From an uncultured Gammaproteobacteria bacterium (lineage in GTDB: Bacteria; Patescibacteriota; Microgenomatia; CAZETR01; Amesbacteraceae), in the NCBI GenBank assembly GCA_964366335.1, contig CAYITQ010000001.1, positions 41,336 through 105,335 on the forward strand: 64,000 nt of DNA, in the 5' to 3' direction. The translations under genes and the position numbers were made by a program. The notes under the pieces were generated by a model. It saw only the letters and a program-made list of their open reading frames with translations. It searched no databases and was not told where the DNA came from. Positions 1 through 17,630 of the stretch are shown here, in pieces. Position 1 is the stretch's first letter. Every line of letters starts with the position of its first letter.

Positions 1-2
1 GG

Positions 3-860
3 CTCCTACTCAAATTTCTACTCAAGTTTCCATATTTAGTTATAGAAGGTTTGGGAATATGCTGGTTAATAAAGAAAGTAGATTTAAAAGCCAGAGATAA
101 ATTTATTCTGGGACTTGCCCTAAATGTACCCGTTTTGTTTTCGGCCTATATGATGGGTCAATTCGATGTCATTATTGCCATTTTGATTGCGGTCTCTGCA
201 ATAGCGTCACTGAAAAAGCCAACTATTTGGTCAGCTGTTCTTTTGGGAGTAGCGGCTGGTTTTAAGCCTTTTCCCTTATTATTGTTACCGCTTTTGGGTG
301 AAGGTATCAAAGATAAATTAAAATATGTTCTAATCGGTGTAGCTACATATATTCTAATAATTTTTCCCTATTTAGGATCTGCCGGTTTCAGACGGTATGC
401 CCTATTAGCCAGCCAAACAGATAAGATTGAATTTGCCAAGATTTTGGTTTCGGGATCTCAATATCTAGCTTTGTTCTGGGTTTTGTCGATTCTGTTGTGG
501 TGGTGGAACTGGTATGACCACAAGAGGCTGACCTTGGTGGAATGGTATTTGGCCGGACTGCTAGTCTTTTATTCTGTAACCCATTTTCACCCCCAATGGT
601 TTACTTGGGGCAGTTTACTCATCGTTTGGATTGGAGCTCACAAAAAAGAACTTCGTTTGCCACTACTTGTCTTGGTCTTGAGTTTTGTGGCTCTTTTAAT
701 GTTGTTTGAGCCATCTTTGAATTTCGGTCTTTTTGGGATCAAGTTTGATTTATTTGCGGCTATAAATAAACATTTTCCAGCTGATCAATTGGCCTCGATT
801 TTACGGTCCTTGTTTGCCGCTACCGGCATTGTTACTATATTGAGATTACGGAAATCATGA
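3..860 (+). CDS. GT-C/DUF2029-like polytopic membrane protein, 5'-truncated at the window edge
   Basis: The reading frame stays open upstream of the TTG at 51 to position 3, so the gene continues beyond the window. Multiple hydrophobic helices. GVAAGFKPFPLLLLPLL segment typical of GT87/DUF2029-like membrane glycosyltransferases. Confidence 0.5.
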   Translation, partial: LLLKFLLKFPYLVIEGLGICWLIKKVDLKARDKFILGLALNVPVLFSAYMMGQFDVIIAILIAVSAIASLKKPTIWSAVLLGVAAGFKPFPLLLLPLLGEGIKDKLKYVLIGVATYILIIFPYLGSAGFRRYALLASQTDKIEFAKILVSGSQYLALFWVLSILLWWWNWYDHKRLTLVEWYLAGLLVFYSVTHFHPQWFTWGSLLIVWIGAHKKELRLPLLVLVLSFVALLMLFEPSLNFGLFGIKFDLFAAINKHFPADQLASILRSLFAATGIVTILRLRKS

Positions 861-1654
861 TTACCTCTGTCGTTATTCCGGTTTATAACGGTAGAAAATA
901 TTTAGAGGATAATCTGCTATTTGTAAATAAACTCGGTGTCAATGAGATTGTGATAGTGGACGATGCGTCCACTGACGGATCCGCAGAATTTATCGCAAAA
1001 AACTATCCAAATATTAAATTAATAAAACACGATGCAAATAAGCGTTTTCCCATTTCAGTCAATGACGGATTCAAAAATGCCACAGGTGATATTGTGTTTT
1101 TGTTAAATCAGGACCTGAAGCCCCATAGAGATTTGGTAAAGAATGCTCTGAGACATTTTAAAGACGATTGTATATTTGCTGTCACATTCAATGAGGGTGA
1201 TCATTCATGGGCGGATGGCAAATGGATAAGCGGAATGCTCGAATTTACAAACGGAAAGCTGGATGATAAGTTACACGAATCTCTTTGGCCTTCGGGGGGG
1301 GGGAGTGCTATCCGCCGTGATGTCTGGAATAAACTTGGAGGCTTTGACCCGATATTTACCCCAGGTTATTTCGAAGATTTGGATTTGGGACTTAGAGCAT
1401 CAAAGGCGGGGTATAAAAATATCTGGGATCCAAGATGCACGGTAACACATTTGGTCTCGGGAACTTTTCCAAAAGTGTTCACTCCGAAGAAACTTCAATA
1501 TATCAAAGAGCGGAATTATCTGATAGCTGTCTGGAAGAATATTGATTTAAAACTCTGGCCAGCACATATATTTAGTTTAATTAAACGAATTATCCGTGGA
1601 CCTGGTTATTTAGTTCCTGTAGTATGGGCTTTATGGAAAAGATTAGCGTCATAA
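857..1654 (+). CDS. family 2 glycosyltransferase (GT2)
   Basis: N-terminal VVIPVYNGRKYLEDNL...IVIVDDASTDGS is the GT2 Rossmann/DXD signature. ATG overlaps the upstream stop (ATGA). Contains a G10 run at 1294-1303. Confidence 0.85.
   Translation: MITSVVIPVYNGRKYLEDNLLFVNKLGVNEIVIVDDASTDGSAEFIAKNYPNIKLIKHDANKRFPISVNDGFKNATGDIVFLLNQDLKPHRDLVKNALRHFKDDCIFAVTFNEGDHSWADGKWISGMLEFTNGKLDDKLHESLWPSGGGSAIRRDVWNKLGGFDPIFTPGYFEDLDLGLRASKAGYKNIWDPRCTVTHLVSGTFPKVFTPKKLQYIKERNYLIAVWKNIDLKLWPAHIFSLIKRIIRGPGYLVPVVWALWKRLAS
1294..1303 (+). repeat. G10 homopolymeric tract inside the GT2 coding sequence (currently in-frame, encodes GGG)
   Basis: tcGGGGGGGGGGagt read directly from the sequence. Highly atypical for a ~36% GC genome. 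Confidence 0.8.
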
Positions 1655-2424
1655 TAATAAATTGGAATGTGGGGGAGTCTTTTGCGCGCTGTATTAAATC
1701 TGTCTTGGACACCAAGTATCCAAACCTAGAATTAATTTTGATCGATAATAATTCCAATAAGCCTCCCAAGATACCTAAGGATCCGAGAGTTACATATATC
1801 CAAAATGAATCTAATCTTGGCTTTCCGGCAGCGGTAAACCAAGGATTAAAGTTATTTGTAGGGGATTATGTGTTGCTACTTAATCCAGACACCCGGATAC
1901 AAAATGATTTTTTTACCAAAGCAATTGAATCTATACAATTTAATAAAAAGATCGGCATCATGGGACCCAAGTTTGTAGATCCCGATGGCACAACCCAAGG
2001 ATCGGTCTACCGTGAACCTTCAATTATTCGTACTATCCAGGAATATTGGTTTGGAAAAACAAATCTGACTGAAAAATACACACTCAATACAAATAATTTG
2101 ACGGAAGTAGACGTTGTCATTGGCGCATGTATGTTTATGTCAAAGAAAATAGTGAAGAAAGTCGGATTATTCACTGACAAAGTTTTTATTTTTTATGAAG
2201 ATTTTGATTATTGCAGACGAATCCGCAAAGCCGGATATAAAGTAATCTTTAATCCGAATATCACTATTATTCATGAACATGGCCAAAGTACCAAACAAAA
2301 TCCCCTGGCAAATGAACTTTTAATGAAAGCCTCTTTGTGGTACAACGGAATGTTAAAGCACTATATTTTGTGGTTTGTTATATGGACTTCCCAGAAAGTA
2401 AATAAAATTCTACTCAAGTCGTGA
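1633..2424 (+). CDS. family 2 glycosyltransferase (GT2)
   Basis: ISVIIINWNVGESF...LILIDNNS motif. The ORF track starts at 1624; the ATG at 1633 (MEKISVII) is the more typical GT2 N-terminus. Overlaps the upstream gene. Confidence 0.8.
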   Translation: MEKISVIIINWNVGESFARCIKSVLDTKYPNLELILIDNNSNKPPKIPKDPRVTYIQNESNLGFPAAVNQGLKLFVGDYVLLLNPDTRIQNDFFTKAIESIQFNKKIGIMGPKFVDPDGTTQGSVYREPSIIRTIQEYWFGKTNLTEKYTLNTNNLTEVDVVIGACMFMSKKIVKKVGLFTDKVFIFYEDFDYCRRIRKAGYKVIFNPNITIIHEHGQSTKQNPLANELLMKASLWYNGMLKHYILWFVIWTSQKVNKILLKS

Positions 2425-2455
2425 CATTTTGTCACAACTTGAATTGTATACAATT
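2421..2455. repeat. two perfect palindromes at the 3' end of the GT2 gene
   Basis: GTGACA-TTT-TGTCAC (2421-2435, overlapping stop TGA 2422-2424) and AATTGTATACAATT (2442-2455). Confidence 0.6.
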
Positions 2456-2490
2456 TGTAAACAACTCAATTCAAAACTTTAAATGATTTT

Positions 2491-2588
2491 CCACCTTAAG
2501 GGCGAAAAACATGAGTCATCGACAAAGTGTCGACAACTGAGATCTGACAGATAATATCAAAACAGATCAAAAGGTTTGGCCGTTGAGT
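2491..2588 (+). repeat. intergenic repeat family, copy A
   Basis: CCACCTTAAGGGCGAAAAAC...TCGACAaagTGTCGA (palindrome 2519-2533)...AGATCT (2540-2545)...ATCAAAACAGATCAAAAGGTTTGGCCGTTGAG. Aligns with copies at 5111-5211 and 5584-5617. Confidence 0.6.
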
Positions 2589-2593
2589 GATTT

Positions 2594-3265
2594 TTATAAG
2601 ACATAATCTGATTTTACCTCGTAACTAAGATAGGGAGTTGAATCTTTCTTCAAAATACAAATATCAATTTCTGGCCATCGGTTTGGTAATTTTTGAATTT
2701 CCCCAACCGACTTCCAGCTAATCTGCTTATGTAATTTCATTCTCTCTTTTTGTTCATGACTAACATCTACTCTGTAAATTGTGAACGCGTCATCAAATAA
2801 TACTTCTCCATGTGATGTTTTAACGGTTTTTAAATGTAAGGATTGAAACTTAAAATCTTTTTCGTCAAGAATGATACCAGTATTGGATTCAAAAATACGA
2901 ATTAAAGCACTTTCAATTGATTCTCCAAACCTAGGTTTTCCACTGGGCAAATTATAAAAATTGGTTGTTTCTGTGGGATGTTCTTTTATTAAAAATTCAT
3001 CACCGTAGTTACATAGAAATCCGATGAAAAACGTTTTATATCCAGTGTCCTCTATGGTCGGCAAGTCATAATCAGTAATTACTTTAATCCCCGCAGCGGT
3101 TATTAGATATTTATCAGCCTCTTTTTTCATCAGACCTTTGCTAATTAACTGTTTAAGATGAAACACAACGTTATCATCAAAATCATAGTCGACTGTTAAA
3201 ACAGAGTATTTTTGCCTGTTCTGTATAAGCAATCTTTTTAGTAATACTTTTTGAATTTCGTGCAT
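2594..3265 (-). CDS. putative transcriptional regulator: N-terminal winged-helix DNA-binding domain fused to a degenerate Nudix-like domain (NrtR-like logic, reversed domain order)
   Basis: N-terminal ~65 aa has a wHTH-like pattern (LLKRLL...VVFHLKQLISKGLMKK...YLITAAGIKV). C-terminal GKPRFGESIESALIRIFESNTGI fits the Nudix box spacing Gx5Ex7R..xE..G, but the REUxEE glutamates are replaced (RIFESN). This suggests a ligand-sensing, non-catalytic Nudix. Confidence 0.5.
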   Translation of the reverse strand: MHEIQKVLLKRLLIQNRQKYSVLTVDYDFDDNVVFHLKQLISKGLMKKEADKYLITAAGIKVITDYDLPTIEDTGYKTFFIGFLCNYGDEFLIKEHPTETTNFYNLPSGKPRFGESIESALIRIFESNTGIILDEKDFKFQSLHLKTVKTSHGEVLFDDAFTIYRVDVSHEQKERMKLHKQISWKSVGEIQKLPNRWPEIDICILKKDSTPYLSYEVKSDYVL

Positions 3266-3374
3266 ATAAAAGTACTCTGATTATAGATGATTCTTGGTGT
3301 AGTTAACTACTCTAGAGAATACGACACTTAACTGATAACCTTCCTATAAATACTGAGGGGAGGTGATTTAATAT
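3266..3374. promoter_or_regulatory. divergent promoter/operator region between the regulator and VOC genes
   Basis: Perfect 12-bp palindrome GTAGTTAACTAC at 3299-3310. Minus-strand TATAAT (complement of 3280-3285) lies 14 nt from the regulator start codon. Plus-strand TATAAAT at 3345-3351 and a strong SD GGGGAGGTGA at 3357-3366 lie 8 nt before the ATG at 3375. Confidence 0.5.
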
Positions 3375-3743
3375 ATGTTCAATAAACTATTTGCAGTTTG
3401 CCTATTAGTAGCAGATTTCGAGCGTTCTCTGACTTTTTACAGGGATGCTGTTGGTTTGGAGGTAAATTCCACTGATGGCGAATTCGCAGATTTCAAATTG
3501 GAAGGAACCTCTCTGGCTATATTCAGCCGAAAAACAGCCATTGCAATGTTCCCAGCAAAGAATATGGGGAAAACTGGTGGCGCTGTATATGGATTTCAAG
3601 TTTCTAATGTAGCCAAAACTTGCGAAGCATTAAAAGTTAAGAATGTTGAAATCTTTGAAGGCCCAAAAACAACCACGTGGGGACAAACTGTGGCATACTT
3701 TAAGGACCCAGATGGTAATATATGGGAGGTCTCAGGAAAATAA
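3375..3743 (+). CDS. VOC family protein (glyoxalase/bleomycin-resistance/dioxygenase fold)
   Basis: 122 aa. Paired beta-alpha-beta-beta-beta module signature: FERSLTFYRDAVGLEV ... KDPDGNIWEV. Strong SD upstream. Confidence 0.75.
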   Translation: MFNKLFAVCLLVADFERSLTFYRDAVGLEVNSTDGEFADFKLEGTSLAIFSRKTAIAMFPAKNMGKTGGAVYGFQVSNVAKTCEALKVKNVEIFEGPKTTTWGQTVAYFKDPDGNIWEVSGK

Positions 3744-4125: not shown

Positions 4126-5080
4126 GATAAAAATTATTGAGTTGGTGCCATCGGCATCGTTTAATTTTGATGCTACTTTTCATAAACCAGATCACTTTAC
4201 GTCTGGTGATAATCTGTGGGAATCTGGAACGCGTTGGCAGACATGGATATGGAAAGAAAAGTGTCTTGGTATTCGGTTTAAAAATATCGGATCTACTTTA
4301 AATCCAAAAATTGAAATTAGTATTTATTCAGAAGAAAAACTGGACAATGCATTTATTAATGATTTTTTTGATGAAGTCAAATATAGATACAACCTGGAGC
4401 TAGATTTAACATCGTTTTATAAAGAATTTGAAAGCGATAAAATCCTTGGACCCATTATTAAAAAGTGGCAAGGGATGAAACCTGGACACCCCAGTTCCTT
4501 ATACGAATATCTCCTTATCGGAATCGTCCTACAAAATGCAACTGTTAGAAGATCTGTTCAAATGTTTAAGGCACTTCTTGAAAATTATGGAACCGAACTA
4601 GAATTTGATGGTAAAAAACTTTGGTGTTTCTTTAAGCCAGGTAGATTGCAAAAAATAACGGAGGAAGAATTAAGAGTATTAAAGCTTGGATACCGTGCCA
4701 AATCAATAAAGAGGATAGACGATTATTTCGCTCAAGGTTTAATGGATGAAATGGAACTTAGAAAAAAAGATAGAGAAACTCAAATGAATGAGTTATTAAA
4801 ACTATATGGCGTTGGACCAGCAACTGTGTGGTATCTGCTTTTTGATGTATTTCATCATTGGGATTTTTTTAACCATGTTTCTCCTTGGGAACAAAAGATT
4901 TATTCTAAAGTATTTTTTGATGTTGATCCCGAAAATCCTGTACCTGTTGCAAAAATTCTCAAACATTTTGATAGATTCGGGAAATATAAACAGCTTGCTG
5001 TGCACTATATCTGGGAAGATCTGTGGTGGAAAAGACAAAACGAGAGTATCCCTTGGTTGGAAAAACAAATCAGAATATAG
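4112..5080 (+). CDS. HhH-GPD superfamily DNA glycosylase (AlkA/Ogg-like)
   Basis: LYEYLLIGIVLQNATVRRSVQMFKALLENYG (HhH-GPD core helix) followed by the LLKLYGVGPATVWYLLFDVF helix-hairpin-helix and Gly/Pro loop with a following Asp, laid out as in AlkA. N-terminal mixed alpha/beta domain as in AlkA/OGG1. Confidence 0.7.
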   Translation: MKLTKIKIIELVPSASFNFDATFHKPDHFTSGDNLWESGTRWQTWIWKEKCLGIRFKNIGSTLNPKIEISIYSEEKLDNAFINDFFDEVKYRYNLELDLTSFYKEFESDKILGPIIKKWQGMKPGHPSSLYEYLLIGIVLQNATVRRSVQMFKALLENYGTELEFDGKKLWCFFKPGRLQKITEEELRVLKLGYRAKSIKRIDDYFAQGLMDEMELRKKDRETQMNELLKLYGVGPATVWYLLFDVFHHWDFFNHVSPWEQKIYSKVFFDVDPENPVPVAKILKHFDRFGKYKQLAVHYIWEDLWWKRQNESIPWLEKQIRI

Positions 5081-5110
5081 ATGTTTTCACCTCAGAAGTG
5101 GAAAGTATGA

Positions 5111-5211
5111 ACCGTCGACAAGATGTCGACAGTCCAGATCTAGTGAATACTATCAAAGTAGATCAAAAAGGTGTGGCCTTTGAATTTACGCTTCACCTGA
5201 AAGGTGGAAAC
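5111..5211 (+). repeat. intergenic repeat family, copy B
   Basis: CGTCGACAagaTGTCGACA (palindrome 5115-5129)...AGATCT (5136-5141)...ATCAAAGTAGATCAAAAAGGTGTGGCCTTTGAA...CACCTGAAAGGTGGAAAC. Same modules as copy A, partly reordered. Confidence 0.6.
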
Positions 5212-5220
5212 TGTTGAATT

Positions 5221-5249
5221 GTTCCATCCCCGAGGTGGAACTTTGGTTT
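5221..5249 (+). terminator. putative intrinsic terminator downstream of the glycosylase gene
   Basis: GTTCCA (5221-5226), 9-nt loop, TGGAAC (5236-5241), followed by TTTGGTTT. Confidence 0.45.
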
Positions 5250-5293
5250 ACAAATTAGACTATTAACTAAGTTAAGAATAAAATGGGTCACAC

Positions 5294-5578
5294 ATGGAAA
5301 TAAGGAGATTACCGTCTTCACTTTTAGAAGGAAAGTTCTTACATTGCCAGCCGGTCGAAGATGGTCCGATTATAGAGGCGCCGATTGTTTCGTCTGAAGA
5401 AGGATCAACGCCGGTATTTAATGTTGTAATCGTTTGCCCAGTGAGACGGCCTTCAAGTAATTGCGCATTGAGGATGGTAGCAGGGAGTCAAGACGTTAAA
5501 TGTCAATATTGGGAAGGTGATTCTTGTGGTCAATATCAAATAGTTGGACCAAAAATGGATAGAAAGTCAGAATATTGA
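5294..5578 (+). CDS. hypothetical small Cys-rich protein (94 aa). Coding status uncertain; could instead be a noncoding element.
   Basis: The only ORF of at least 60 aa in 5217-5623. Locally GC-richer than the surroundings. No SD. Preceded by a perfect palindrome TTAACTaAGTTAA (5263-5275). Bounded by repeat copies B and C. Confidence 0.25.
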   Translation: MEIRRLPSSLLEGKFLHCQPVEDGPIIEAPIVSSEEGSTPVFNVVIVCPVRRPSSNCALRMVAGSQDVKCQYWEGDSCGQYQIVGPKMDRKSEY

Positions 5579-6487: not shown

Positions 6488-8041
6488 ATGTTAAGGAAAC
6501 TTGGTTTTATTTTAGCACTTGGGTTGGTCTTGAGGATAGGACTTTTGACCAAAGTTCCGTCTGAGCTGTTTGGAGACGAAGTTGATGTGGGTTATCAAGC
6601 GTATTCTTTATTGAAAACCGGCCAAGACATTTACCGCCAAACTCTGCCTTTTTATGTTCATTCCCTAGCTGAATGGCGGGCACCCCTTCTCATGTATGCC
6701 ACCGTCCCGACAATTGCAGTAGCCGGTCTCAATGAATACGGCGCCCGCCTGCCAGAAGTGATTTTTGGGGTTTTAGGCATAGCCATAATATTTTTATTGA
6801 CGAGGAAATATTCTGTGGCTCTAGCTTTGGCAATTATGCCCTGGCATATTCACTATTCTAGGGCTGCTTTTGAAGTTGTACTCATGCTTGATCTAATCAT
6901 GCTGGGAACACTCTTGTTTCTCAAAAAACGTTTTTTGTTAGGTTTTATATTTTTTGCCCTGAGTCTTTATACATATAGTACTGCCATGTTGTTTGTCCCG
7001 CTGTGGATAGGCTATTTACTTATCAAAGAAAAAGCTTTTCCAATCTTGCAGGGACTGGTTTTTGGATTGTTGATAACACCACTTATTTATTTTATTTTTT
7101 TGGGTCCTGCCCGCGACCGGTTTGGGATTCTGAGCCTGACAAACAACCGCGAAATAATTGACAAAGTCTTTACACTCAGAAAAGAATCTTCTTCTCCTTA
7201 CATAAAATTCTTTGTAAATAAATATTTCATGGTCGGGGGAGAATGGTTTATGAATTATTTACGGCCCTTCTCGTCCGAATTTTTGTTTGTCAGGGGAGAC
7301 CCTGTTATGCGCCATAGCATTCAAGCGATCGGACAATTATTACCCCTGATGGCACCATTTTTGTTAATTGGTCTCTATGTCTTGGCCAAGAAAAGACAAT
7401 GGCTGTGGCTTGTCTGGTTGGCTCTTGCTCCCATCCCAGCATCTCTGACTTCTGATGGTGGCTATCATGCCACCCGCCTGTTTCTAATGGTCCCGCCACT
7501 TGCTGTCGCCATCGGCACCGGTCTCTCTCAAATTAAAAACCGCCTGTTACTTGTCTCCTGTCTCCTGTTACTATCAGCCCAACTGGTTTGGGCCGGCTAC
7601 TATTACCTCAATCATTATTCCAAACAATCCTGGCGTTGGTGGCATGTGGGTTACAAAAATATTCTTACCCAAATCCCCGCTCTCAGTGAAAATTATTCCA
7701 GGATATTTATAAACAACACTTATGAGCCGGCCCTGATGCGGTTTTTGTTTTGGACCAAATATGATCCTGCTAAGTTTCATAAGAACTTTACGGATGACAA
7801 ACCCTTAGACAATATTGTTCCCGGATATGACGGCTTTAGTCTGGATGGTAAATATTTCTTTGGCGCTTTCAACGGAAAAGAAAAACTTTTTCTTCCGGGA
7901 AGTCTATATATGATATCCCAGCGCGATGATGTGGGGGGAGATTGGGATTGGCGGGAATCACCTCCTGATAACATAAATCTAATAGGCGCCAGTAGCAATC
8001 TGTACGGTCAAGCGGTATTTTATTTGGTATCCAAAAAATGA
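6488..8041 (+). CDS. GT-C fold membrane glycosyltransferase, PMT/ArnT-like (GT39/GT83-type)
   Basis: About 12 TM helices. Loop-1 GDEVDVGYQAYSLLKTGQD 'DE' motif characteristic of the PMT/ArnT family. C-terminal soluble domain. Confidence 0.8.
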   Translation: MLRKLGFILALGLVLRIGLLTKVPSELFGDEVDVGYQAYSLLKTGQDIYRQTLPFYVHSLAEWRAPLLMYATVPTIAVAGLNEYGARLPEVIFGVLGIAIIFLLTRKYSVALALAIMPWHIHYSRAAFEVVLMLDLIMLGTLLFLKKRFLLGFIFFALSLYTYSTAMLFVPLWIGYLLIKEKAFPILQGLVFGLLITPLIYFIFLGPARDRFGILSLTNNREIIDKVFTLRKESSSPYIKFFVNKYFMVGGEWFMNYLRPFSSEFLFVRGDPVMRHSIQAIGQLLPLMAPFLLIGLYVLAKKRQWLWLVWLALAPIPASLTSDGGYHATRLFLMVPPLAVAIGTGLSQIKNRLLLVSCLLLLSAQLVWAGYYYLNHYSKQSWRWWHVGYKNILTQIPALSENYSRIFINNTYEPALMRFLFWTKYDPAKFHKNFTDDKPLDNIVPGYDGFSLDGKYFFGAFNGKEKLFLPGSLYMISQRDDVGGDWDWRESPPDNINLIGASSNLYGQAVFYLVSKK

Positions 8042-9258
8042 TTCGTAAATTACTTATATTTTCGGTAGTGATTATATTATTTGTCTGGCGGATTTTTCTT
8101 TCGGTCAACGCCAAGCATGGCGACATGTACAATAATATTAGCTGGGGAAGGGTAGCCTACAAACAGGAAGGTCTGGCCGGATATTATGAATTACCCAAAG
8201 AGGTCTGGTCTCACAGCCGGCCCAACCAGCCACCTGGTAGCATTTGGCTTCATCTTGCATCAGAAAATATTTATTACTCAACTGATAAACTGATAAACTG
8301 GCTAAACGGTAAACTACCGGTGTTTCCCTCAACGCTGGTTTGGTTTTGGCAGGATCATGGTGAGGTTATCTCGATCAAAATATTTTCAATATTAGCTGAC
8401 TTTGCGATAGCCCTTTTATTGTATAAAGCCGGCGGAAAAGGATTGGCTTTGATTTACCTGGTTAGTCCACCCATGTGGTACAACTCAAGCTACTGGGGCC
8501 AGACGGATCCGATTGTAGCGGCCTTAGCACTCTGGTCAATATACTTTCTGATCAAGGGAAAACTAGCCAGATCCGGCATACTTCTCGGACTTTCTTTGAT
8601 TACCAAGGCTTCGTGGGCGCCACTAACACTCTTCTATTTAATTTATTTTTGTCAAAATTTTCCCAGAAAAGTCTATAATTTGGTATTTATACCAGTAACG
8701 GCTATTTTGACTGCTTGGCCGTTTCACCCACAAACAGATCTCGTTTTTTGGCTGTACGATTTGTTTGTGACCAGAATACTGCCGGGAGAAACTGCTTTAG
8801 CTACCGTGGGTGCTTTTAATCTACATCACATAATCTGGGGTCAGATGGTCAACCATTGGTTTTCGACTATTTTAGCCATGATTATCTTAATTCCCTTAAT
8901 TATATATATGGCCATTAATTTGTTTCGGAAATCCGACCCCTTGAGACTTATTTATTGGCTGGCTCTCTTATTTTGGGCTTTCTTTTTGTTTAATACCAAA
9001 ATGCACGAACGCTACCTTTATCCCATTTTTCCGTTATTATCTTTTTTATTGGTTTTGAAACCGACTATAAAATTATTGATAATATACGTGCTAATCTCGC
9101 TGGTATTTTTGTTTAATATGTACTACATGTGGTATGCGCCCAATATCCCATGGTTGATGTCGCTGTATACACCCGAAGTTCTAGATTTCGTGAGTTTGGT
9201 TAATATTATTTTGTTTATCGCCTTTTTTAAGCTAAAATCAAGTTATGTTCAAGACTAA
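8038..9258 (+). CDS. polytopic membrane protein, probable GT-C-like glycosyltransferase
   Basis: 406 aa, many TM helices. HGDMYNNISWG loop near the N-terminus. Translationally coupled (ATGA) to the upstream PMT-like gene. Confidence 0.45.
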   Translation: MIRKLLIFSVVIILFVWRIFLSVNAKHGDMYNNISWGRVAYKQEGLAGYYELPKEVWSHSRPNQPPGSIWLHLASENIYYSTDKLINWLNGKLPVFPSTLVWFWQDHGEVISIKIFSILADFAIALLLYKAGGKGLALIYLVSPPMWYNSSYWGQTDPIVAALALWSIYFLIKGKLARSGILLGLSLITKASWAPLTLFYLIYFCQNFPRKVYNLVFIPVTAILTAWPFHPQTDLVFWLYDLFVTRILPGETALATVGAFNLHHIIWGQMVNHWFSTILAMIILIPLIIYMAINLFRKSDPLRLIYWLALLFWAFFLFNTKMHERYLYPIFPLLSFLLVLKPTIKLLIIYVLISLVFLFNMYYMWYAPNIPWLMSLYTPEVLDFVSLVNIILFIAFFKLKSSYVQD

Positions 9259-10828
9259 CTGGATAGTGGTAGGATTTATGGTCTTGGGATTTGTGCTTCG
9301 AACAGTTTGGCTTGCTAAATATCCGGCTGGTTTCACCCCGGACGAGGCTGCCTTTGGCTACAATGCCTATTCAATCTTGCAAACAGGTAAGGATGAGTGG
9401 GGAACTCCTTGGTGGCAATTGTTTTCCTCAAATATGCGCTCTTTTGGCGATTACAAGCTTCCCCTCTATACTTTCTTGGCCATTCCTAGTATAAAACTGT
9501 TTGGTTTAAATGAATTTGCCACCAGACTTCCAAATGCGATTATTGGGACATTGGCCATAGGGGCGATATATTTATTGACAAAGAGATTGTCCGCTGCCGT
9601 AATTCTGACACTCTCGCCCTGGGCAATTAGTATGTCCCGGGGGGCATTTGAAGCCAATCTCGCCACCTTGTTTTTGCCTCTGGGAATATATTTATTTTTG
9701 AGAAACAAATATTGGCTCAGCGCAATTATTTTTGCTTTGAGCTTTTATTCATATCATTCAGCAAGACTCGTGACACCAATAATCATTCTCATTCTGGTTT
9801 TGTATAAAAAAGTGAATAAAGAAGTATTACTACCAAGTTTACTTTTGGGTATTTTGTTAATTCCGGGATTATTCTCGATGGTGTCTCGAGGTAGTGCCCG
9901 GACGGCCGATGTCAGTATCATCAGTCCGACTGGTGGTTGGAGTGCAGTAGCCGATCGGAGATTTGAAGCCATTGTTGTTGGACTTCCGGATTCTGTCAGC
10001 AGATTCTTTTCCAACAAACCAATTTATGTAGTATCTGCTTTTGTCAAAAATTATTTGTCATATTGGTCACCACAATTCTGGTTTACTAGTGGGGCTGGCG
10101 AAGCTACTTATGGCATGATTACCGGCCGCGGGACATTTTATTATGTTGAAATCATATTCTTGGCTGGATTTTTAATATTATTTATCCGAAACCCCAATAA
10201 AGAATATTTGTTTATCCTGTTACTGGCAGCTATCAGCTTTGTTCCATCAGCTTTATCCAAAGGTCCTGGATATGCTGCCAACCGTGCCGTCATCGCCCTG
10301 CCATTTTTAATTATGATGCTCTCTCTGGGATCAGAATTTATATTAAAGAAAAAATCCTTAATTATTCTAACTTCTATCTTCTACCTTCTATCTTCCGTAT
10401 ATTTTATAGAGGACTACCTCTACCATGCACCCAAAAATAGTGCTAGGTCAATGAATTATGGCTGGACGGATTTGATGCCGAGGCTAATGCCAATAGCCAG
10501 TAGATTTGAAGACGTCAGATTTAGCAGATCACTTTCCGAGCCACATATATTTCTGGCTTTTTATACCAAGGCCGATCCAAAAGTTTATCAGCAGTATTCT
10601 TCGGGGTGGCTGGAATTTGAAAAGAAGGGCCTGAAATTTCTGGATCAATATGATGGTTATTATTTGGAAAAATTCCGCTTTGGGGATTTGAAGTATGGAG
10701 AACAGGTAACTAAACCAACCTTATATATAGGTAGACCGGATGAATTTCCGGACGATACCGGTTACTATATCAAAACGTTTTATCCGGACGGAACGCCAGA
10801 CATGATGGTAGCAGAAAAACAACCATGA
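9245..10828 (+). CDS. GT-C fold membrane glycosyltransferase, PMT/ArnT-like
   Basis: FTPDEAAFGYNAYSILQTGKDEWG DE motif. Multi-TM core plus C-terminal domain. Paralog of 6488, 12351, 14518 and 16020. Confidence 0.8.
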   Translation: MFKTNWIVVGFMVLGFVLRTVWLAKYPAGFTPDEAAFGYNAYSILQTGKDEWGTPWWQLFSSNMRSFGDYKLPLYTFLAIPSIKLFGLNEFATRLPNAIIGTLAIGAIYLLTKRLSAAVILTLSPWAISMSRGAFEANLATLFLPLGIYLFLRNKYWLSAIIFALSFYSYHSARLVTPIIILILVLYKKVNKEVLLPSLLLGILLIPGLFSMVSRGSARTADVSIISPTGGWSAVADRRFEAIVVGLPDSVSRFFSNKPIYVVSAFVKNYLSYWSPQFWFTSGAGEATYGMITGRGTFYYVEIIFLAGFLILFIRNPNKEYLFILLLAAISFVPSALSKGPGYAANRAVIALPFLIMMLSLGSEFILKKKSLIILTSIFYLLSSVYFIEDYLYHAPKNSARSMNYGWTDLMPRLMPIASRFEDVRFSRSLSEPHIFLAFYTKADPKVYQQYSSGWLEFEKKGLKFLDQYDGYYLEKFRFGDLKYGEQVTKPTLYIGRPDEFPDDTGYYIKTFYPDGTPDMMVAEKQP

Positions 10829-12372
10829 ATAAATTTCTATTAGTTTTAGTCCTGCTTTTGATTCCTGCTTTTGGCTTGATGCTTAGACCTGGAGTTTATA
10901 CCATGCATGATTTTCATGTCTTCCGCCAGCAACAATTTGAAAAATGTTTGCAGATAACCAAAAACTTTCCGTGCCGATGGTCCGGCGATGCCGGATTAGG
11001 TTATGGAGAACCAGTCTTTAATTTTTATGGTCAATTCCCATATTGGATTGGAGAAGTATTCAGAATATCAGGATTGTCAATTTTGGATTCTGTCAAAGCC
11101 AATTTTATATTGACATTAATTGCATCGGCGGTGGCGATGTACTTTCTTGCCCGGAAATTTTGGTCAAATTCAGGAGCCTTAGTCTCTGCGGTATTCTATG
11201 CCTATGCACCTTATCGGGCTGTCGATATTTGGGTGCGGGGAGCACTCAATGAATCTCTGGCTTTTATCTTTTTTCCTTTGATACTTTTATTTATCAAAGA
11301 ATTTATATCTACAAACAAGAATAAATATTTATTTTGGCTAATATTATCACTGGCAGGACTGACACTGACACATAATTTGTCGCTTTTGGTTTTTGCTCCA
11401 TTTGCAATTATATGGAGTATATTTTGGTGGTGGAAGAGCAATAGATCTATTCATTTAATTTATGATTTGACTAGCGCAGGATTAGCAAGCGTTCTGTTAT
11501 CAGCCTTTTATTTATTGCCTGTCATATTTGAAAGTAGTTTAGTAACTCTAAATCAGACAACTTCCGGTTATTATGATTTTCATTTGCATTACGCGACTCT
11601 GCGACAATTATTTCTTTCCACTTTTTGGGGATTTGGCGGATCTACCTGGGGTCCCAATGATACCATGAGTTTTGCGGTCGGACATTTACATTGGATATTG
11701 GCAATAATATTAGTCGTGTTCGTGTTGATAAAAAAAAGAAACAAAGAAATATTATTTTTTATCTCTCTCGGTCTCTTTGCTATCTTTCTTACTCACGGTA
11801 AATCAGACTTTATCTGGAATCTGGTTAAACCCATGGCTTATATCCAGTTTCCCTGGCGGTTTTTGACTATGTCCACCTTATTTTTATCGCTGGCGATGGG
11901 AGCCGTTACAAAATTGATTCCAAAACCGATATGGATTGTTTTATTGGTGCTGGGAATAACATTTTATGCTGGGAATTTCCACTCGGATATCTGGAGAGAT
12001 ATTACAGACAGTCAGCAATTCAGTGGCCAATTATGGGATGAGCAGAGAAGCTCGGCCCTGTCAGACTTCTGGCCAAAATCGGCCAAGCTTCCAAATAATT
12101 TCGCTCCCAAATCACCTGAAATAATTCTGGAGACTGACAGCTATCAAAAAATCCGCTATCCGATTGTTTATTTTCCGGGTTGGACGGCACGAAGCAATAA
12201 ACAAAAATTATTTATTTATCCAAGTGGGGAATTAGGTTTGATTACTGTGAGGGCTCCGGTAAATTCAAATATAAAATTATCTTTTGAAGATTCGCCGGTC
12301 AGAAAAATCGGAAACATTGTCAGTCTGATTACCTTATTTGGATTAATGATTTGGATGTGGAAAAAATCTTAA
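10825..12372 (+). CDS. polytopic membrane protein (possible YfhO/GT-C-like)
   Basis: 515 aa. N-terminal TMHDFHVFRQ loop. About 12 TM helices. C-terminal soluble domain ending in a TM anchor. Confidence 0.45.
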   Translation: MNKFLLVLVLLLIPAFGLMLRPGVYTMHDFHVFRQQQFEKCLQITKNFPCRWSGDAGLGYGEPVFNFYGQFPYWIGEVFRISGLSILDSVKANFILTLIASAVAMYFLARKFWSNSGALVSAVFYAYAPYRAVDIWVRGALNESLAFIFFPLILLFIKEFISTNKNKYLFWLILSLAGLTLTHNLSLLVFAPFAIIWSIFWWWKSNRSIHLIYDLTSAGLASVLLSAFYLLPVIFESSLVTLNQTTSGYYDFHLHYATLRQLFLSTFWGFGGSTWGPNDTMSFAVGHLHWILAIILVVFVLIKKRNKEILFFISLGLFAIFLTHGKSDFIWNLVKPMAYIQFPWRFLTMSTLFLSLAMGAVTKLIPKPIWIVLLVLGITFYAGNFHSDIWRDITDSQQFSGQLWDEQRSSALSDFWPKSAKLPNNFAPKSPEIILETDSYQKIRYPIVYFPGWTARSNKQKLFIYPSGELGLITVRAPVNSNIKLSFEDSPVRKIGNIVSLITLFGLMIWMWKKS

Positions 12373-13841
12373 TAATAATTATTCTTGTGACCGGCATCGT
12401 TTGGAGATTGCCGTATTTTGCACCCTCTAGTTTCAATTGGGATGAAGTTTCTCTCGGATATAATTCTTATTCAATGTTGAAGTCTGGAGCGGATGAATGG
12501 GGTATAAAAATGCCAACAATATTTCGAGCTTATGGTGATTACAAGCTTCCGGTATATGTCTACATGACCACACTCTGGCCGCAATTCCCCCGCACTACAT
12601 CTATCATTGCAGGCGTACTGACAATGCTGATTTCCTATTTATTGGTCCGAAAAATATTTAATAAAGAAACTGCGCTTGTTACTTTGGCACTTGTCACTCT
12701 GTCACCCTGGACAGTCATGCTCTCTCGTTTGGCTCTCGAGGCAAACTTAGCCGTTTTATTTATTTCCTTGGGCATGCTCTGCTTGGTCTCCAAAAAACAC
12801 CTCTGGTCAATAATCTTTTTTGGCATCTCGGTTTGGACTTACAACAGTGCGCGAGTATTTACTCCTTTATTTTTAGCTTGTTATTTAATCATAAACAAAA
12901 ATTATAAAAAGTTTACTTCTATGAACTATATACTATTAATTATTTTCTTTTTGCCGATGATATATCAATTATTAAACTCCACAGGTCAAGCACGATACAG
13001 TAAATTGTCACTTATAGACGACGGAGCTATAGGCAAAATAAATAAATTACAAACAACTCAATGGGGAGGACGCATGGTTTACAACAAAGCCACTTATTTT
13101 GCAGCCGCTTTTGCCAAAAATTATGTATCATATTTATCACCCAGTTTTTTGTTTATCAAAGGTGGCGATCACTATCAATTCAGCGTCCAAAATTATGGTC
13201 TTTTGTATCTAATATGTCTGCCTTTTTATTATATTGGATTAACAAAAGTTTTTAATAATAAATTACTTTTATTGTGGCTCTTAATAGCTCCAATCGCAGG
13301 AAGTATTACCCGTGATAGTCCTCACACCCTTCGAGCCATCACAATGCTGCCATTGCCAATGATACTTACCGCTCTTGGTGTAGTATCTATATTAAAAAAA
13401 TATTATTTAGTAATATTGCCAATTATTATATTATCTTCGATAAACTATCAACTAGCTACTAACTCCTATCTCCTAAACTACTCATGGTCTTGGCAATATG
13501 GCTATAAAGAAGTAGTTCAATTAATCAAACAAGACTACGATAAATACGATCAGATTATTTTTACCAAAAAATATGGTGAACCGCATGAATTTGTAGCCTT
13601 TTATTGGCCCTGGGATCCGGCTGATTTTGCCAAAAGTAAATCCTGGGACTATCATGCCAATTGGTATTGGGTCAACGAACTGGATAAAATTAAATTTGTA
13701 AATGATTGGGAAATGAAATCATATGTATATAAACCCAAGACACTAATTATCGCCAGTCCGGAAAATATTCCCGCGGGATCCGAAATCAAGCGAATTAATT
13801 TCCTAGACGGCAAACCCGCTTTTATAATTAAAGAATTATGA
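12351..13841 (+). CDS. GT-C fold membrane glycosyltransferase, PMT/ArnT-like
   Basis: FNWDEVSLGYNSYSMLKSGADEWG DE motif. Start is TTG at 12351 (alternative GTG at 12357). Overlaps the upstream gene. Confidence 0.75.
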   Translation: MDVEKILIIIILVTGIVWRLPYFAPSSFNWDEVSLGYNSYSMLKSGADEWGIKMPTIFRAYGDYKLPVYVYMTTLWPQFPRTTSIIAGVLTMLISYLLVRKIFNKETALVTLALVTLSPWTVMLSRLALEANLAVLFISLGMLCLVSKKHLWSIIFFGISVWTYNSARVFTPLFLACYLIINKNYKKFTSMNYILLIIFFLPMIYQLLNSTGQARYSKLSLIDDGAIGKINKLQTTQWGGRMVYNKATYFAAAFAKNYVSYLSPSFLFIKGGDHYQFSVQNYGLLYLICLPFYYIGLTKVFNNKLLLLWLLIAPIAGSITRDSPHTLRAITMLPLPMILTALGVVSILKKYYLVILPIIILSSINYQLATNSYLLNYSWSWQYGYKEVVQLIKQDYDKYDQIIFTKKYGEPHEFVAFYWPWDPADFAKSKSWDYHANWYWVNELDKIKFVNDWEMKSYVYKPKTLIIASPENIPAGSEIKRINFLDGKPAFIIKEL

Positions 13842-14443
13842 TAGTATTTATTGATGAGTCTGGGATTCATAAGCAAATAGGTCATTCGAGTGCTTCGGTA
13901 GTTTACGTTTGGACTCAGGATTTGGATAAATTTGAAAAAGGAATTGAGAGTTTAAATCAAAAGTTGAAAATAAATTATTTTCATTGGACTGAAAGTAGTT
14001 GGGAATTAAAAGAAAAATTTTTAGTCGGTGTCAGAAAATTAGATTTTCTATTTAAAGTTATCGTTTTTGATAACCCCATTAAATATCAGCAAATAATCGA
14101 GGTGGTCTTTAAGCATTTATTGGTGGAAAATGTGGATAAAGTATTCATTGACGGCAAAAAACCCGAATGGTATGAACGGAAACTAAAAAAAGTTTTAAGG
14201 GATATGGGAAACTCGGTTAAAAAACTGAAGACGATAAGAAATGAGTCGGCACATCCAGGAATCCAATTGGCAGATGCAATTGCTGGTTTATATAGGTACC
14301 AAGCCGATAATCCAAATTCTAAAATTGCGTCGGAGTTAGTGAAGAAATTAAATAAAAATGAAGTAATGTCAAGTAGCTTTAATGCCGATAATTATTTTAC
14401 CAAGAAAAACCCCGACAAAAGCCGGGGTCAGCGTCCCGGATAG
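13838..14443 (+). CDS. DUF3800-like protein (predicted RNase-H-like fold, soluble)
   Basis: N-terminal MIVFIDESGI and C-terminal HPGIQLADAIAGLY motifs match the DUF3800 pattern (YIDESG ... QLADxxAG). No TM segments. ATGA-coupled to the upstream PMT gene. Confidence 0.5.
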   Translation: MIVFIDESGIHKQIGHSSASVVYVWTQDLDKFEKGIESLNQKLKINYFHWTESSWELKEKFLVGVRKLDFLFKVIVFDNPIKYQQIIEVVFKHLLVENVDKVFIDGKKPEWYERKLKKVLRDMGNSVKKLKTIRNESAHPGIQLADAIAGLYRYQADNPNSKIASELVKKLNKNEVMSSSFNADNYFTKKNPDKSRGQRPG

Positions 14444-14517
14444 TTCACCATTGGTGTACTTTTCCACACGGGAATTTGTCACCGGTAGCTAGTTATGAGA
14501 TTATTATACGATAACTT

Positions 14518-16023
14518 ATGAAAATGTCAAGATTAATGATACTAATTTTTATTGTTTCTCTTGGTCTTACACTTAGACTGTTTTACTTAGACTCGCGTCC
14601 GGTGGGTTTTACCTGGGATGAAGCGGCCTTGGGATACAACGCCTATTCATTACTAAAGACGGGAAAGGATGAATATGGGAAAATTTTGCCGGTGGTATTT
14701 AAATCCTTTGGCGATTACAAGCCCGGATTATATATATATCTTACTGTCCCGGCCATAAAAATATTTGGTCTGTCAGAATTCGCCACCCGATTACCATCAG
14801 CGATCTTTGGAACGTTATTAATTGTCGTTGTGTATTTATTGGTTTCGAAATTACTTAGCGCTCAGCACCTAGCCCTTAGCACGGCATTTCTTCTTGCGAT
14901 TAATCCCTGGTCCATTCACTTCTCCCGTGGTGCCTGGGAAGCCAACATAGCGCTATTTCTGACGACATTAGCTACATTATTGTTTATAAAAAAGCGCTAT
15001 ATATATTCAAGTTTATTTTTTGGATTAACGCTATTTACCTATCAGGGGGCCAAGATGTTTACCCCGCTCTTAGTTTTATCACTTTTGATAATTTATAAAC
15101 CAAATATTAAAAAACTGTTTTGGCCAGGAGTATTAGGATTACTTCTGTTATTACCAATCCTTTGGAATCTTGATTCACAATCCGGAAGGTTGAAGGTCTT
15201 TAGTATCTTTAATTATCAGGGAAATTTAGTCAGGGGAATTACCCAGCGTTACCTAAATCACCTTTCTCCGAAATATTTGTTTTTTACGGGAGACTGGTCA
15301 AATTTGCGTCAGAGTATTCCCTATTATGGCTACTTCCACCTGCCCGAAATTATCACCATCGCAATCGGTCTGATTGTTCTTCTAAGAACTAATAACCAAG
15401 TAACCAAGCTACTAATAACATGGCTATTAATTGTTATTTTACCTTCCGCCCTATCCCGTGATATTGTCTCTGGTGTCCGCTCTCTGCCTATGGTAATACC
15501 GTTAGTAATTATGTCCGGAATCGGACTTGCAAAATTATTTTATTATCACCGCCTTTTATACATTTATACATTTATACTTTTATCCTTATTTATTTTATTC
15601 TTGGATCTCTATTTTATCCATGCTCCCAATTTCGTAGCCCGTGACATGATGTATGGTTATAAACAAGCTCTTCAAATAATCAAACCGTACTTAGATAGGT
15701 ATGATAGGGTAATATTTACAGACAAACTTGGTCAGCCGTATATATATACTTTATTCTATTACACAATAGACCCAGGCAGTTATCAAAAACAAGCAAATTT
15801 AATATTAGATTCCCAGGGGGATGTAGGAAAAGTGGAAAAGTGGGGTAAGTTTTTGTATCAGCCACCCGATTGGCGATATCAGCGGGGTGACAACTCAACC
15901 ATATTTGTGGGTGATAATTACGAATTGCCCGATCAGGATATGAATCCGGTAAATTTAATTAAATTGGGTGAAGTTTACTATCCAAATGGCAAACACGCGC
16001 TTAGAATAGTGGCTCTAAAATGA
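14518..16023 (+). CDS. GT-C fold membrane glycosyltransferase, PMT/ArnT-like
   Basis: FTWDEAALGYNAYSLLKTGKDEYG DE motif. Contains a heptamer-repeat tract at 14854-14882. Confidence 0.8.
   Translation: MKMSRLMILIFIVSLGLTLRLFYLDSRPVGFTWDEAALGYNAYSLLKTGKDEYGKILPVVFKSFGDYKPGLYIYLTVPAIKIFGLSEFATRLPSAIFGTLLIVVVYLLVSKLLSAQHLALSTAFLLAINPWSIHFSRGAWEANIALFLTTLATLLFIKKRYIYSSLFFGLTLFTYQGAKMFTPLLVLSLLIIYKPNIKKLFWPGVLGLLLLLPILWNLDSQSGRLKVFSIFNYQGNLVRGITQRYLNHLSPKYLFFTGDWSNLRQSIPYYGYFHLPEIITIAIGLIVLLRTNNQVTKLLITWLLIVILPSALSRDIVSGVRSLPMVIPLVIMSGIGLAKLFYYHRLLYIYTFILLSLFILFLDLYFIHAPNFVARDMMYGYKQALQIIKPYLDRYDRVIFTDKLGQPYIYTLFYYTIDPGSYQKQANLILDSQGDVGKVEKWGKFLYQPPDWRYQRGDNSTIFVGDNYELPDQDMNPVNLIKLGEVYYPNGKHALRIVALK
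14854..14882 (+). repeat. degenerate heptanucleotide tandem tract (CTTAGCG CTCAGCA CCTAGCC CTTAGCA C) within the coding sequence
   Basis: 7-nt periodicity read directly from the sequence. Shares the core AGCACTTAGCCCTTAGCAC with tracts at 16351, 16513 and 17003. Confidence 0.55.
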
Positions 16024-17630
16024 AAAAATATATTCCATTATTTTTGATTTTAATTTTGGCTACAGTATTACGTGTCTGGAATATCTCTGGTAGCCCTTCG
16101 GGGCTCAATGCCGACGAAGCAGCTCTGGGCTACAACGCTTATTCTCTGATGTTGACTGGAAAAGATGAGCATGGCCATCCTTGGCCCGTTAATCTGGAAT
16201 CTTTTGGCGATTTCAAACCGGCTGGTTATGCCTATATATTAATTCCCTTTGTCAAAATCTTTGGTCTTACCGAATTCGCCGTCCGCCTCCCCTCGGTAAT
16301 ATTTGGGGTATTGGGAGTATTGGGAATTTATTTGTTAACCTACGAACTACTTAGCACTTGGCCCATAGCCCTTAGCACTGCTCTTATGCTCACAATTTCC
16401 CCTTGGCATTTACACTTTTCTAGAGGAGCTTGGGAAGTAAATGTCTCAACAACGTTTATAGTTTATGGTTTATGGTTCATAGTAAAATGGCTCAAAAGTC
16501 CAAAGTTTATATACTTAGCCCTTAGCACCTGGCACCTAGCACTGGCAATGTATTTCTATCAATCTTCCCGCGTCATCGTTCCACTATTGGGTCTAGGAAT
16601 ATTTATCATGTATTTCAAGAATTTTAAAACAAACCTCAAGCAAACAATAGTTTCTGGATTATTGTTGTTGGTATTATTATTACCTTTAATAATTTCGGTT
16701 ATAAGATCTGACGCTACATCCAGATTGAGCGGCGTAGGCTTATTAGCCGATTCGGGACCTACTGAGCGAGCCAAGGAACTTCGTATTCAGCATGGGGATC
16801 TCAAATCTATTCCTTCCAAGCTTTTGCACAATAGACCCGTACAATATGGTCTAAGATTTATTCAAAACTATCTCGATCATTTCGATGGTAATTTTCTGTT
16901 TGTAAACGGCGACGTCATCGAGCGTAGTAAGGTCCCGGAAATGGGTCTCTTTTATCTGACCGATTTTATTTTTCTAGCTCTTGGAATCGTTTATCTGCTT
17001 CGTACTCAGCACTTAGCCCCTAGCACTAATATAATCTGGCTCTGGCTTCTAATCGCACCAGTAGCTTCCGCCATGACATTCCAGACTCCTCACTCTCTCC
17101 GCGCCTTCAATATGGTAATTCCTATGACAATAATAATCTCTGTGGGAGTGTATCAAGTAATAAAATTTAAAAAACTATTTATCATTTTAATTGTTCCGTT
17201 ATATGTATATCAGCTTTCAGACTATTTGTATAAATATTACGTCCGTTATCCAAAAGAATATCCAGCCGCTTGGGAATATGGTTTTAAAGAACTGGTGGCC
17301 TATACAGAAAGTGTCAAAGACAAATATCCCAAAATCTGGGTGACAGACAAATATGACCAGCCCTATATATTGTTTCTATTTTATTCAAAATATGACCCAC
17401 GAAAGTTTCAGGGCAACCACACCCTTACATTTCGCGACAAATTCAATTTTTCTACTGTACGCGACTTCGATAAATATCATTTTGAATCCGCTCCTTGGGA
17501 CAAAGTCCGCAATCAGCATTCGGCATTGATAGTAGCTGCGCCAGAGGATATTCCAGATCTGGGAGTGGATGTGATAAAAACCATCAATTTCCCAAATGGC
17601 CTCCCGGCGTTTAAAATAGTATCAAATTGA
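16020..17630 (+). CDS. GT-C fold membrane glycosyltransferase, PMT/ArnT-like
   Basis: LNADEAALGYNAYSLMLTGKDEHG DE motif. ATGA-coupled. Contains three heptamer-repeat tracts. Confidence 0.8.
   Translation: MKKYIPLFLILILATVLRVWNISGSPSGLNADEAALGYNAYSLMLTGKDEHGHPWPVNLESFGDFKPAGYAYILIPFVKIFGLTEFAVRLPSVIFGVLGVLGIYLLTYELLSTWPIALSTALMLTISPWHLHFSRGAWEVNVSTTFIVYGLWFIVKWLKSPKFIYLALSTWHLALAMYFYQSSRVIVPLLGLGIFIMYFKNFKTNLKQTIVSGLLLLVLLLPLIISVIRSDATSRLSGVGLLADSGPTERAKELRIQHGDLKSIPSKLLHNRPVQYGLRFIQNYLDHFDGNFLFVNGDVIERSKVPEMGLFYLTDFIFLALGIVYLLRTQHLAPSTNIIWLWLLIAPVASAMTFQTPHSLRAFNMVIPMTIIISVGVYQVIKFKKLFIILIVPLYVYQLSDYLYKYYVRYPKEYPAAWEYGFKELVAYTESVKDKYPKIWVTDKYDQPYILFLFYSKYDPRKFQGNHTLTFRDKFNFSTVRDFDKYHFESAPWDKVRNQHSALIVAAPEDIPDLGVDVIKTINFPNGLPAFKIVSN
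16351..16379 (+). repeat. heptanucleotide tandem tract (ACTTAGC ACTTGGC CCATAGC CCTTAGC ACT)
   Basis: Same repeat family as 14854-14882, at the homologous position of the paralog. Confidence 0.55.
16513..16546 (+). repeat. heptanucleotide tandem tract (ACTTAGC CCTTAGC ACCTGGC ACCTAGC ACTGGC)
   Basis: Same family. Non-homologous position within the same gene. Confidence 0.55.
17003..17027 (+). repeat. heptanucleotide tandem tract (ACTCAGC ACTTAGC CCCTAGC ACT)
   Basis: Same family. Third tract in gene 16020-17630. Confidence 0.5.

Follow-up and report, generated by a model that had tools for sequence, protein, structure and literature searches.

Poly-G and poly-C tracts in the open reading frames of glycosyltransferases are known from Neisseria (lgtA, lgtC and lgtG) and Helicobacter pylori (futA and futB), where they encode runs of glycine or proline and where frameshifts toggle a glycan epitope. 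These tracts vary in length among isolates, and the organisms are host-associated pathogens under immune selection. In Campylobacter jejuni, which has no MutS/MutL, there are 11-29 such tracts per genome; their length is documented to vary, and their switching rates have been measured. The rates for G8-G11 tracts in C. jejuni are 1e-4 to 4e-3 per division, with a modal tract length of 9-10 and few runs of G6-G8. Of the tracts, 80% lie within open reading frames as polyG of the coding strand, and conservation of the tracts between strains is poor (PMC3401435).

Also outside these systems, homopolymers in prokaryotic coding regions are indel hot spots that can cause reversible gene inactivation (Orsi et al. 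2010, PMC2831843; PMC3315296). The general enrichment of homopolymers concerns poly(A) and poly(T) of up to 7 bases, located near the 5' ends of genes (PMC2831843, PMC3315296). As a rule, the most mutable repeats are kept out of mid-protein coding sequence, and tracts that have been selected for phase variation are enriched near the N-termini (Lin and Kussell 2012, PMC3315296).

CPR bacteria constitute a large share of groundwater communities. Because they are uncultivated, next to nothing is known of their cell-surface biology or of how they interact with phage and attach to hosts. Among the MAGs from the same Hainich wells, Patescibacteria dominate, with a relative abundance of 59% (PMC12960796). 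Among CPR phyla, Gracilibacteria and Absconditabacteria have MutS/MutL, and Saccharibacteria lack them (PMC8406219). The first-pass annotation of the DNA studied here remarked that phase-variable glycosylation is not generally described for this kind of organism, and our literature search agrees, as it returned no paper connecting homopolymer phase variation with CPR/Patescibacteria.

Here, we describe a run of ten G's (G10) inside a glycosyltransferase gene of a Microgenomates (CPR) bacterium from Hainich groundwater. The stretch of DNA analysed, referred to as the window, is 64 kb long and is a glycosylation island of this bacterium. The tract is similar to those in the polyG/C glycan genes of C. 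jejuni (cj1139c/wlaN and the capsule and LOS transferases) in that it belongs to the G9-G10 class and lies on the coding strand within a glycosyltransferase open reading frame. The low-GC genome, the scarcity of intermediate runs, the truncation caused by a change of +/-1 and the absence of the tract from the orthologous site in relatives are also shared. However, here a single tract is found in 64 kb, only one length has been observed, and the tract falls into a conserved loop of the catalytic domain. In contrast to the organisms with the Neisseria and H. pylori switches, the present one is an uncultivated groundwater CPR bacterium. Compared with generic prokaryotic homopolymers, the tract differs by being a long poly-G located mid-protein, while the property of being an indel hot spot is the same.

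A G10 tract in a GT2 glycosyltransferase gene

The tract, its gene and the two adjacent genes are located in the window as follows.

1-860, + strand: 3' portion of the membrane GT-C-like gene that lies upstream (396 aa where a contig holds it in full), with a weak GT87 match
857-1654, + strand: tract-bearing GT2 family glycosyltransferase gene, 265 aa, GT-A fold, in the ON frame (Pfam, AF2 and Foldseek)
1294-1303, + strand: G10 homopolymer, GGGGGGGGGG, on the coding strand, with the 5' flank ...TGGCCTTC and the 3' flank AGTGCTATC...
1624-2424, + strand: downstream GT2 gene, 266 aa when started at 1624, or 263 aa when started at 1633

The tract had initially been placed in frame within the GT2 gene at 857-1654, and this is borne out by the sequence and by the frame of the open reading frame. 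Its codons are TCG GGG GGG GGG, encoding S146, G147, G148 and G149, i.e., the run takes in the last base of the Ser146 codon (TCG) and the complete codons of Gly147, Gly148 and Gly149. Six of the ten G's are dictated by the three glycine codons. As glycine codons fix two of every three bases of the tract, only four synonymous changes are needed to obtain G10.

The gene overlaps, which suggest translational coupling, are real. The stop codon of the upstream gene overlaps the start of the tract-bearing gene as ATGA at 857-860, and the downstream GT2 gene has its start (1624 or 1633) within the final 22-31 nt of the tract-bearing gene. This arrangement is kept in orthologous loci.

The GC content of the 64-kb window is 37.0%. 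For G runs of at least 10, an iid model predicts 0.004 occurrences in the window and a first-order Markov model 0.06. For a codon-based null, the synonymous codons of the 55 open reading frames of the window were resampled with the codon usage of the window in 3000 trials. GGG is the rarest glycine codon in this usage (14% of Gly) and TCG is among the rarest serine codons (10.6% of Ser), giving a site-specific probability of G10 of 0.106*0.14^3 = 2.9e-4. In the resampling, any G/C run of at least 10 appeared in 0.3% of the trials, compared with 3.5% for runs of at least 9 and 24% for runs of at least 8. G10 is far longer than the amino-acid sequence and the codon usage predict (P=0.003 per window).

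The shorter runs match the codon null. There are 4 G runs of at least 6 nt where 3.8 are expected, 2 of at least 7 nt where 0.98 are expected, and 2 C runs of at least 7 nt where 0.57 are expected. G10 is therefore a lone outlier and not the tip of a general enrichment. The spectrum of G runs on the + strand comprises 26 G5, two G6, none of G7-G9 and one G10. It had been noted before that the window holds no second G/C tract longer than 7, and this is correct: the next in length are three 7-nt runs (at 40265, 47773 and 49598) and two G6. As G10 is the sole long tract (at least 8 nt) within the 64 kb, the signature of multiple contingency loci is missing. Neither is any G/C run of at least 8 found across the 297 kb of other low-GC loci that were compared.

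Among the 7-nt runs, the G7 at 47773-47779 (TGG GGG GGA) lies on the coding strand of a methyltransferase gene on the - strand (47052-47822), 44-50 nt into the gene and thus near its 5' end. It is probably due to chance, because it is within the codon-shuffled expectation. The two C7 runs (40265-40271 and 49598-49604) are inside large open reading frames without Pfam matches and are compatible with the same expectation.

The tract-bearing enzyme

The 265-aa product matches the Pfam family Glycos_transf_2 (PF00535, E=3.2e-22, 79.7 bits with a cut-off of 23.3), with further matches to PF13641 and PF13632. It has 232 homologues at E<=1e-10, and the few that are named include Woesebacteria and Amesbacteria MAGs. 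One close homologue (P0009, 77% identity) is labelled as a Bacteroidetes MAG by its source. A protein identical to the product was found in the cluster listing (P0122), and a partial product of identical sequence carries the label 'Patescibacteria group bacterium'.

The AF2 model, based on 41 homologues, has a pLDDT of 92.7 and a pTM of 0.90. When this fold is searched with Foldseek against the PDB, the top matches are GT-A enzymes, among them the catalytic domain of ppGalNAc-T2 (TMq 0.71-0.76) and the mannosyltransferase PcManGT, both with probability 1.00. The sequence identity to solved structures is 16-20%. No characterised close homologue was found, as the best PDB sequence matches have E ~1e-8 and cover the N-terminal half alone.

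Two conserved segments, one on each side of the tract, are used below.

1106-1114, + strand: codons of N84-Q85-D86, upstream of the tract and retained in OFF alleles; N84 and D86 are invariant
1361-1384, + strand: codons of PGYFEDLD (P169-D176), downstream of the tract; P169, Y171, E173, D174 and D176 are invariant

Across the 41 aligned homologues, D36, N84, D86, E173, D174 and D176 are invariant. We infer that D36, D86, E173, D174 and D176 are the acidic residues that bind the metal and the nucleotide-sugar and take part in catalysis. In the GT-A fold, N84-Q85-D86 presumably takes the DxD-type position. S146 and G147 likewise show no variation in the alignment, G148 is present in at least 90% of the sequences, and residue 149 is mostly S and in a few sequences G. 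The alignment contains no indels around S146-G149, and in the AF2 model these residues form a loop leading into the strand 149-153.

The orthologous site in related lineages

The codons of the motif were read in 13 orthologue lineages with 57-80% amino-acid identity. They include TCT GGG GGC AGT, TCC GGA GGT AGT, TCG GGC GGC GGA, TCT GGA GGG GGA and TCC GGC GGC AGC. A long tract is absent from the orthologous site in all 13 lineages, where the longest G run is 5, and the tract is therefore specific to one species. The proposal that it acts in phase variation is weakened by this check, as the relatives carry an ordinary mix of GGx codons. However, the absence from orthologues weighs weakly against phase variation, because the tracts of C. 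jejuni are poorly conserved between strains as well. The SGGG variant of the motif is also found in two orthologues (P0016 and P0018).

It is quite possible, if short of probable, that G10 is an incidental fragile site, formed by chance or drift from four synonymous G-ending codons, neutral or slightly deleterious, and with no switching that is put to use. The reading frame would then be held by purifying selection, with dislocation-type homogenisation of a formerly interrupted G run as a possible contributor to its origin. A synonymous change would eventually interrupt the tract, as in all relatives. The orthologues do hold partial runs (TCT GGG GGC, TCT GGA GGG GGA and TCG GGC GGC GGA), and G10 is two or three transitions away from such sequences. 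An incidental origin also agrees with a tract that is species-specific, that has a single length in all contigs (see below), that is without companion tracts and that is located mid-gene in a conserved loop. The expectation of ~0.003 per 64 kb can be scaled to an estimated ~0.05 per 1-Mb genome, and some cases are therefore expected among thousands of CPR genomes.

On the other hand, P=0.003 within the window speaks against chance, as does the usage of GGG and TCG, which is at or near the bottom for glycine and serine, respectively. That the tract has persisted through 0.7% of strain divergence (contig L001, below) is also mildly surprising, because mutable repeats mid-protein are generally avoided (PMC3315296). 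Further, G10 is hypermutable regardless of how it originated.

Search for length variants

A G9 product (195 aa) would show as 148 identical residues, i.e., at ~56% coverage and ~99% identity, and none is present among the matches in 5.8 billion protein clusters. Nor is a G11 product (154 aa) found in the 90% identity cluster, which consists of P0001, P0121 and P0122 alone. The G11 product is equally missing from the former set, and the G9 product from the latter. A scan of genome contigs for the motifs PGY[FY]EDLD and DDAS gave, among the matches listed, distant GT2s with at most 39% identity. When metagenome contigs were scanned for the exact flanks of the tract with any 6-14 nt between them, 0 matches were obtained; a near-identical strain is therefore absent from the scanned metagenome contigs.

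Several shorter homologues were considered as possible variants and rejected. P0105 (197 aa) is probably not a frameshift of the tract, as its DNA switches to unrelated sequence at a duplicated 11-nt segment, TTCCGGAGGCA. The locus (470-520 of L185, a 976-nt contig from another species, GCA_040960175.1) departs from the gene right after SGGSAAFRR, and the switch at this segment is probably an assembly chimera or a rearrangement, unrelated to the homopolymer. The shortened homologues P0100 and P0101, and a set of homologues of 242-243 aa, are not tract variants either: they differ at the N-terminus and not in the tract region.

Predicted effect of a change in tract length

The length of the tract was edited in silico and the products were translated. 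Two stop codons are reached in the shifted frames.

1318-1320, + strand: stop of the G11/G8 frame, with products of 154 aa (G11) and 153 aa (G8)
1443-1445, + strand: stop of the G9/G12 frame, with products of 195 or 196 aa that carry an aberrant tail of ~47 residues, in the frame of the open reading frame 1263-1445

G9 thus gives a product of 195 aa, ending at 1443-1445, and G11 one of 154 aa, ending at 1318-1320, in agreement with the earlier statement that a slippage of +/-1 would truncate the enzyme. G7 and G13 keep the reading frame. The PGYFEDLD segment is lost from both the G9 and the G11 product, and judged from their sequences both are almost certainly enzymatically dead. The two stops fall 180-310 nt ahead of the start of the downstream GT2 gene, and such an early stop could weaken the translational coupling to it.

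The shifted frames could also be entered during gene expression. In that case, stutter of the RNA polymerase or re-pairing of tRNA-Gly would yield a fixed truncated fraction from an unchanged gene, as programmed or tolerated recoding. Judging from the codons, a tRNA decoding GGG would re-pair perfectly in either shifted frame, and both of these frames terminate soon after the tract. However, no shifted-frame product is conserved, the orthologues are without the run, and it is the zero-frame product that is conserved, which makes slippage by the polymerase or the ribosome a very improbable explanation of the tract.

Reproducibility of the tract

Contigs of the same species were recovered by an exact-protein look-up. 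All originate from well H43, in groundwater of the Hainich Critical Zone.

L001: assembly ERZ1292635, 0.2 µm fraction; G10; differs from the window at 9 positions
L098 and L096: assembly ERZ1292632; L098 spans the tract (G10), L096 begins at window position 1321
L099: assembly ERZ1292626; G10
L097: Logan assembly of ERR3858116; G10

The tract is exactly G10 at the consensus level in 5/5 spanning sequences, i.e., the window, L001, L097, L098 and L099. No length variant is seen among these five consensus sequences, which come from one well at 4-5x coverage; minor length variants would therefore escape view, as minor alleles are hidden by the consensus.

In ERZ1292632 the gene is split. L098 ends at window position 1307, 4 nt past the tract, and L096 resumes at 1321. 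The GenBank entry MEK7163787.1, a 'partial' GT2 protein of 150 aa with the C-terminus ...WPSGGGS, is a product of this break. With contigs of ~4.6 kb, the chance of a break within ~30 nt of the tract is estimated at ~0.7%. As a coincidence thus has an estimated chance below 1%, the break can be ascribed to the tract itself. Heterogeneity in read length accounts for the break just as well as the ordinary difficulty of sequencing poly-G at 4-5x does.

An assembly or polishing artefact was raised as an alternative when the tract was first noted. Such an artefact, or one of sequencing, would mean that the true run is interrupted or shorter and was altered by two-colour poly-G or a polishing error. 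Although poly-G is a known problem sequence on short-read platforms and ERZ1292632 breaks right after the tract, this is extremely improbable and all but ruled out. Four contigs from four other read sets, assembled in three cases by ENA entries and in one by Logan, agree with the window on exactly G10, and the strain behind L001 does so despite its 9 SNPs. Moreover, the length preserves the frame, the SGGG motif is shared with P0016 and P0018, and coding is normal on both sides.

L001 (1286 nt) shows one further difference. Its first 22 nt (nt 1-22) do not match the window, while the other 1264 nt are 99.3% identical to it. The mismatch is either a chimera at the contig end or a strain-level structural difference in the upstream GT-C gene.

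A candidate phase-variation switch

G10 is a legitimate candidate for a switch, mechanistically plausible and undemonstrated. Of the original proposal of a slipped-strand phase-variation switch, the molecular part stands: the tract is real, it lies on the coding strand, it is unexpected from codon usage, it is in a glycan enzyme, and a change of +/-1 truncates that enzyme. The comparative observations speak against it: the homologues carry ordinary codons, the window holds no companion tracts, and a single length is seen in the five consensus sequences. The location also argues against a switch, since the tract is mid-gene (codon 146 of 265) in a conserved loop with invariant S146 and G147 and no indels.

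We suggest that a switch at this site could work in the following way. G10 is a genuine and species-specific homopolymer, presumably of recent origin, in a working GT-A glycosyltransferase. It formed because each of the four synonymous positions over the conserved Ser-Gly-Gly-Gly loop is, by chance, a G, and the groundwater population that was sampled has the gene in the ON frame. Then, (i) as the run of ten G's is a strong hot spot for strand slippage at replication, G9 and G11 cells would arise, and revert, at rates orders of magnitude above those of ordinary mutants; (ii) the G9 and G11 alleles would produce a dead enzyme, and translation would end before the overlapping downstream GT2 gene; and (iii) the outcome would be a reversible and stochastic loss of one or two steps in the building of the surface glycan. 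As the island contains many transferases, the loss of one of them would remodel the glycan and not abolish it.

The steps of this model are not equally probable. That measurable ON/OFF heterogeneity exists at the G10 site is somewhat more probable than the opposite. In this organism, slippage may be frequent enough to matter biologically, and the resulting heterogeneity could be used, e.g., against phage or in host attachment. It appears unlikely, however, that G10 is a selected contingency locus. Similarly, it is doubtful that groundwater Microgenomates (CPR/Patescibacteria) use a poly-G slipped-strand contingency switch by which the surface glycan of a giant island is stochastically remodelled.

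If such a switch exists, the contingency-locus strategy, known mainly from host-adapted pathogens, would also be found in free-living or episymbiotic ultra-small bacteria, and no homopolymer phase-variable locus would have been described in CPR before it. It would provide ultra-small, probably episymbiotic cells with population heterogeneity against phage or in host attachment, and it would be a concrete marker that can be followed in existing metagenomic time series. If G10 instead arose by chance as a fragile site, it is no more than an ordinary curiosity. Even so, it would illustrate that poly-G tracts break low-coverage assemblies and give rise to 'partial' calls such as MEK7163787.1.

Gene content of the glycosylation island

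The island in the window contains ~13 GT2 genes, several GT1/GT4 genes and ~8 GT-C genes with matches to PMT_2, GT87 or PIG-V, seven of the latter standing in tandem at 6488-17630. It also encodes a Polysacc_synt flippase, a UbiA prenyltransferase, many SAM methyltransferases, an epimerase/dehydratase and an asparagine synthase.

Around the tract, a promoter scan of positions 1-3400 gave nothing above the shuffled expectation, and no terminator was found between the coupled genes. Two strong terminator-like hairpins, with 15 and 11 pairs, are located at 2412-2444 and at 2514-2538 (- strand). Both are in the convergent gap between the downstream GT2 gene, which ends at 2424, and a NUDIX-like gene on the - strand (2594-3265), and they are consistent with the end of an operon. 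In an orthologous locus with 80% identity (L082), the coupled GT2 pair is followed by a gene with a KilA-N domain (4621-5325). In the window the pair is followed by the NUDIX-like gene on the opposite strand, and the synteny with L082 stops immediately behind the GT2 pair.

Further downstream, at 6488-17630, seven consecutive large open reading frames (406-536 aa) lie on one strand, with a small DUF3800 open reading frame among them. Five of these weakly match PMT_2, GT87 or PTPS_related/DUF6541, while 6488-8041 is without a match. This region looks like a tandem array of GT-C glycosyltransferase paralogues.

Five other large open reading frames of the island have no Pfam match at E<=1e-4. Three of these, at 34095-37211, 37198-40719 and 49820-52618, encode proteins of 1038, 1173 and 932 aa, and two, at 22469-24226 and 32447-34114, encode proteins of 585 and 555 aa. 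Finally, in the open reading frame at 30894-32435 an N-terminal PHP phosphoesterase domain is fused to a SAM-dependent methyltransferase domain, a combination that is unusual for a glycan cluster.
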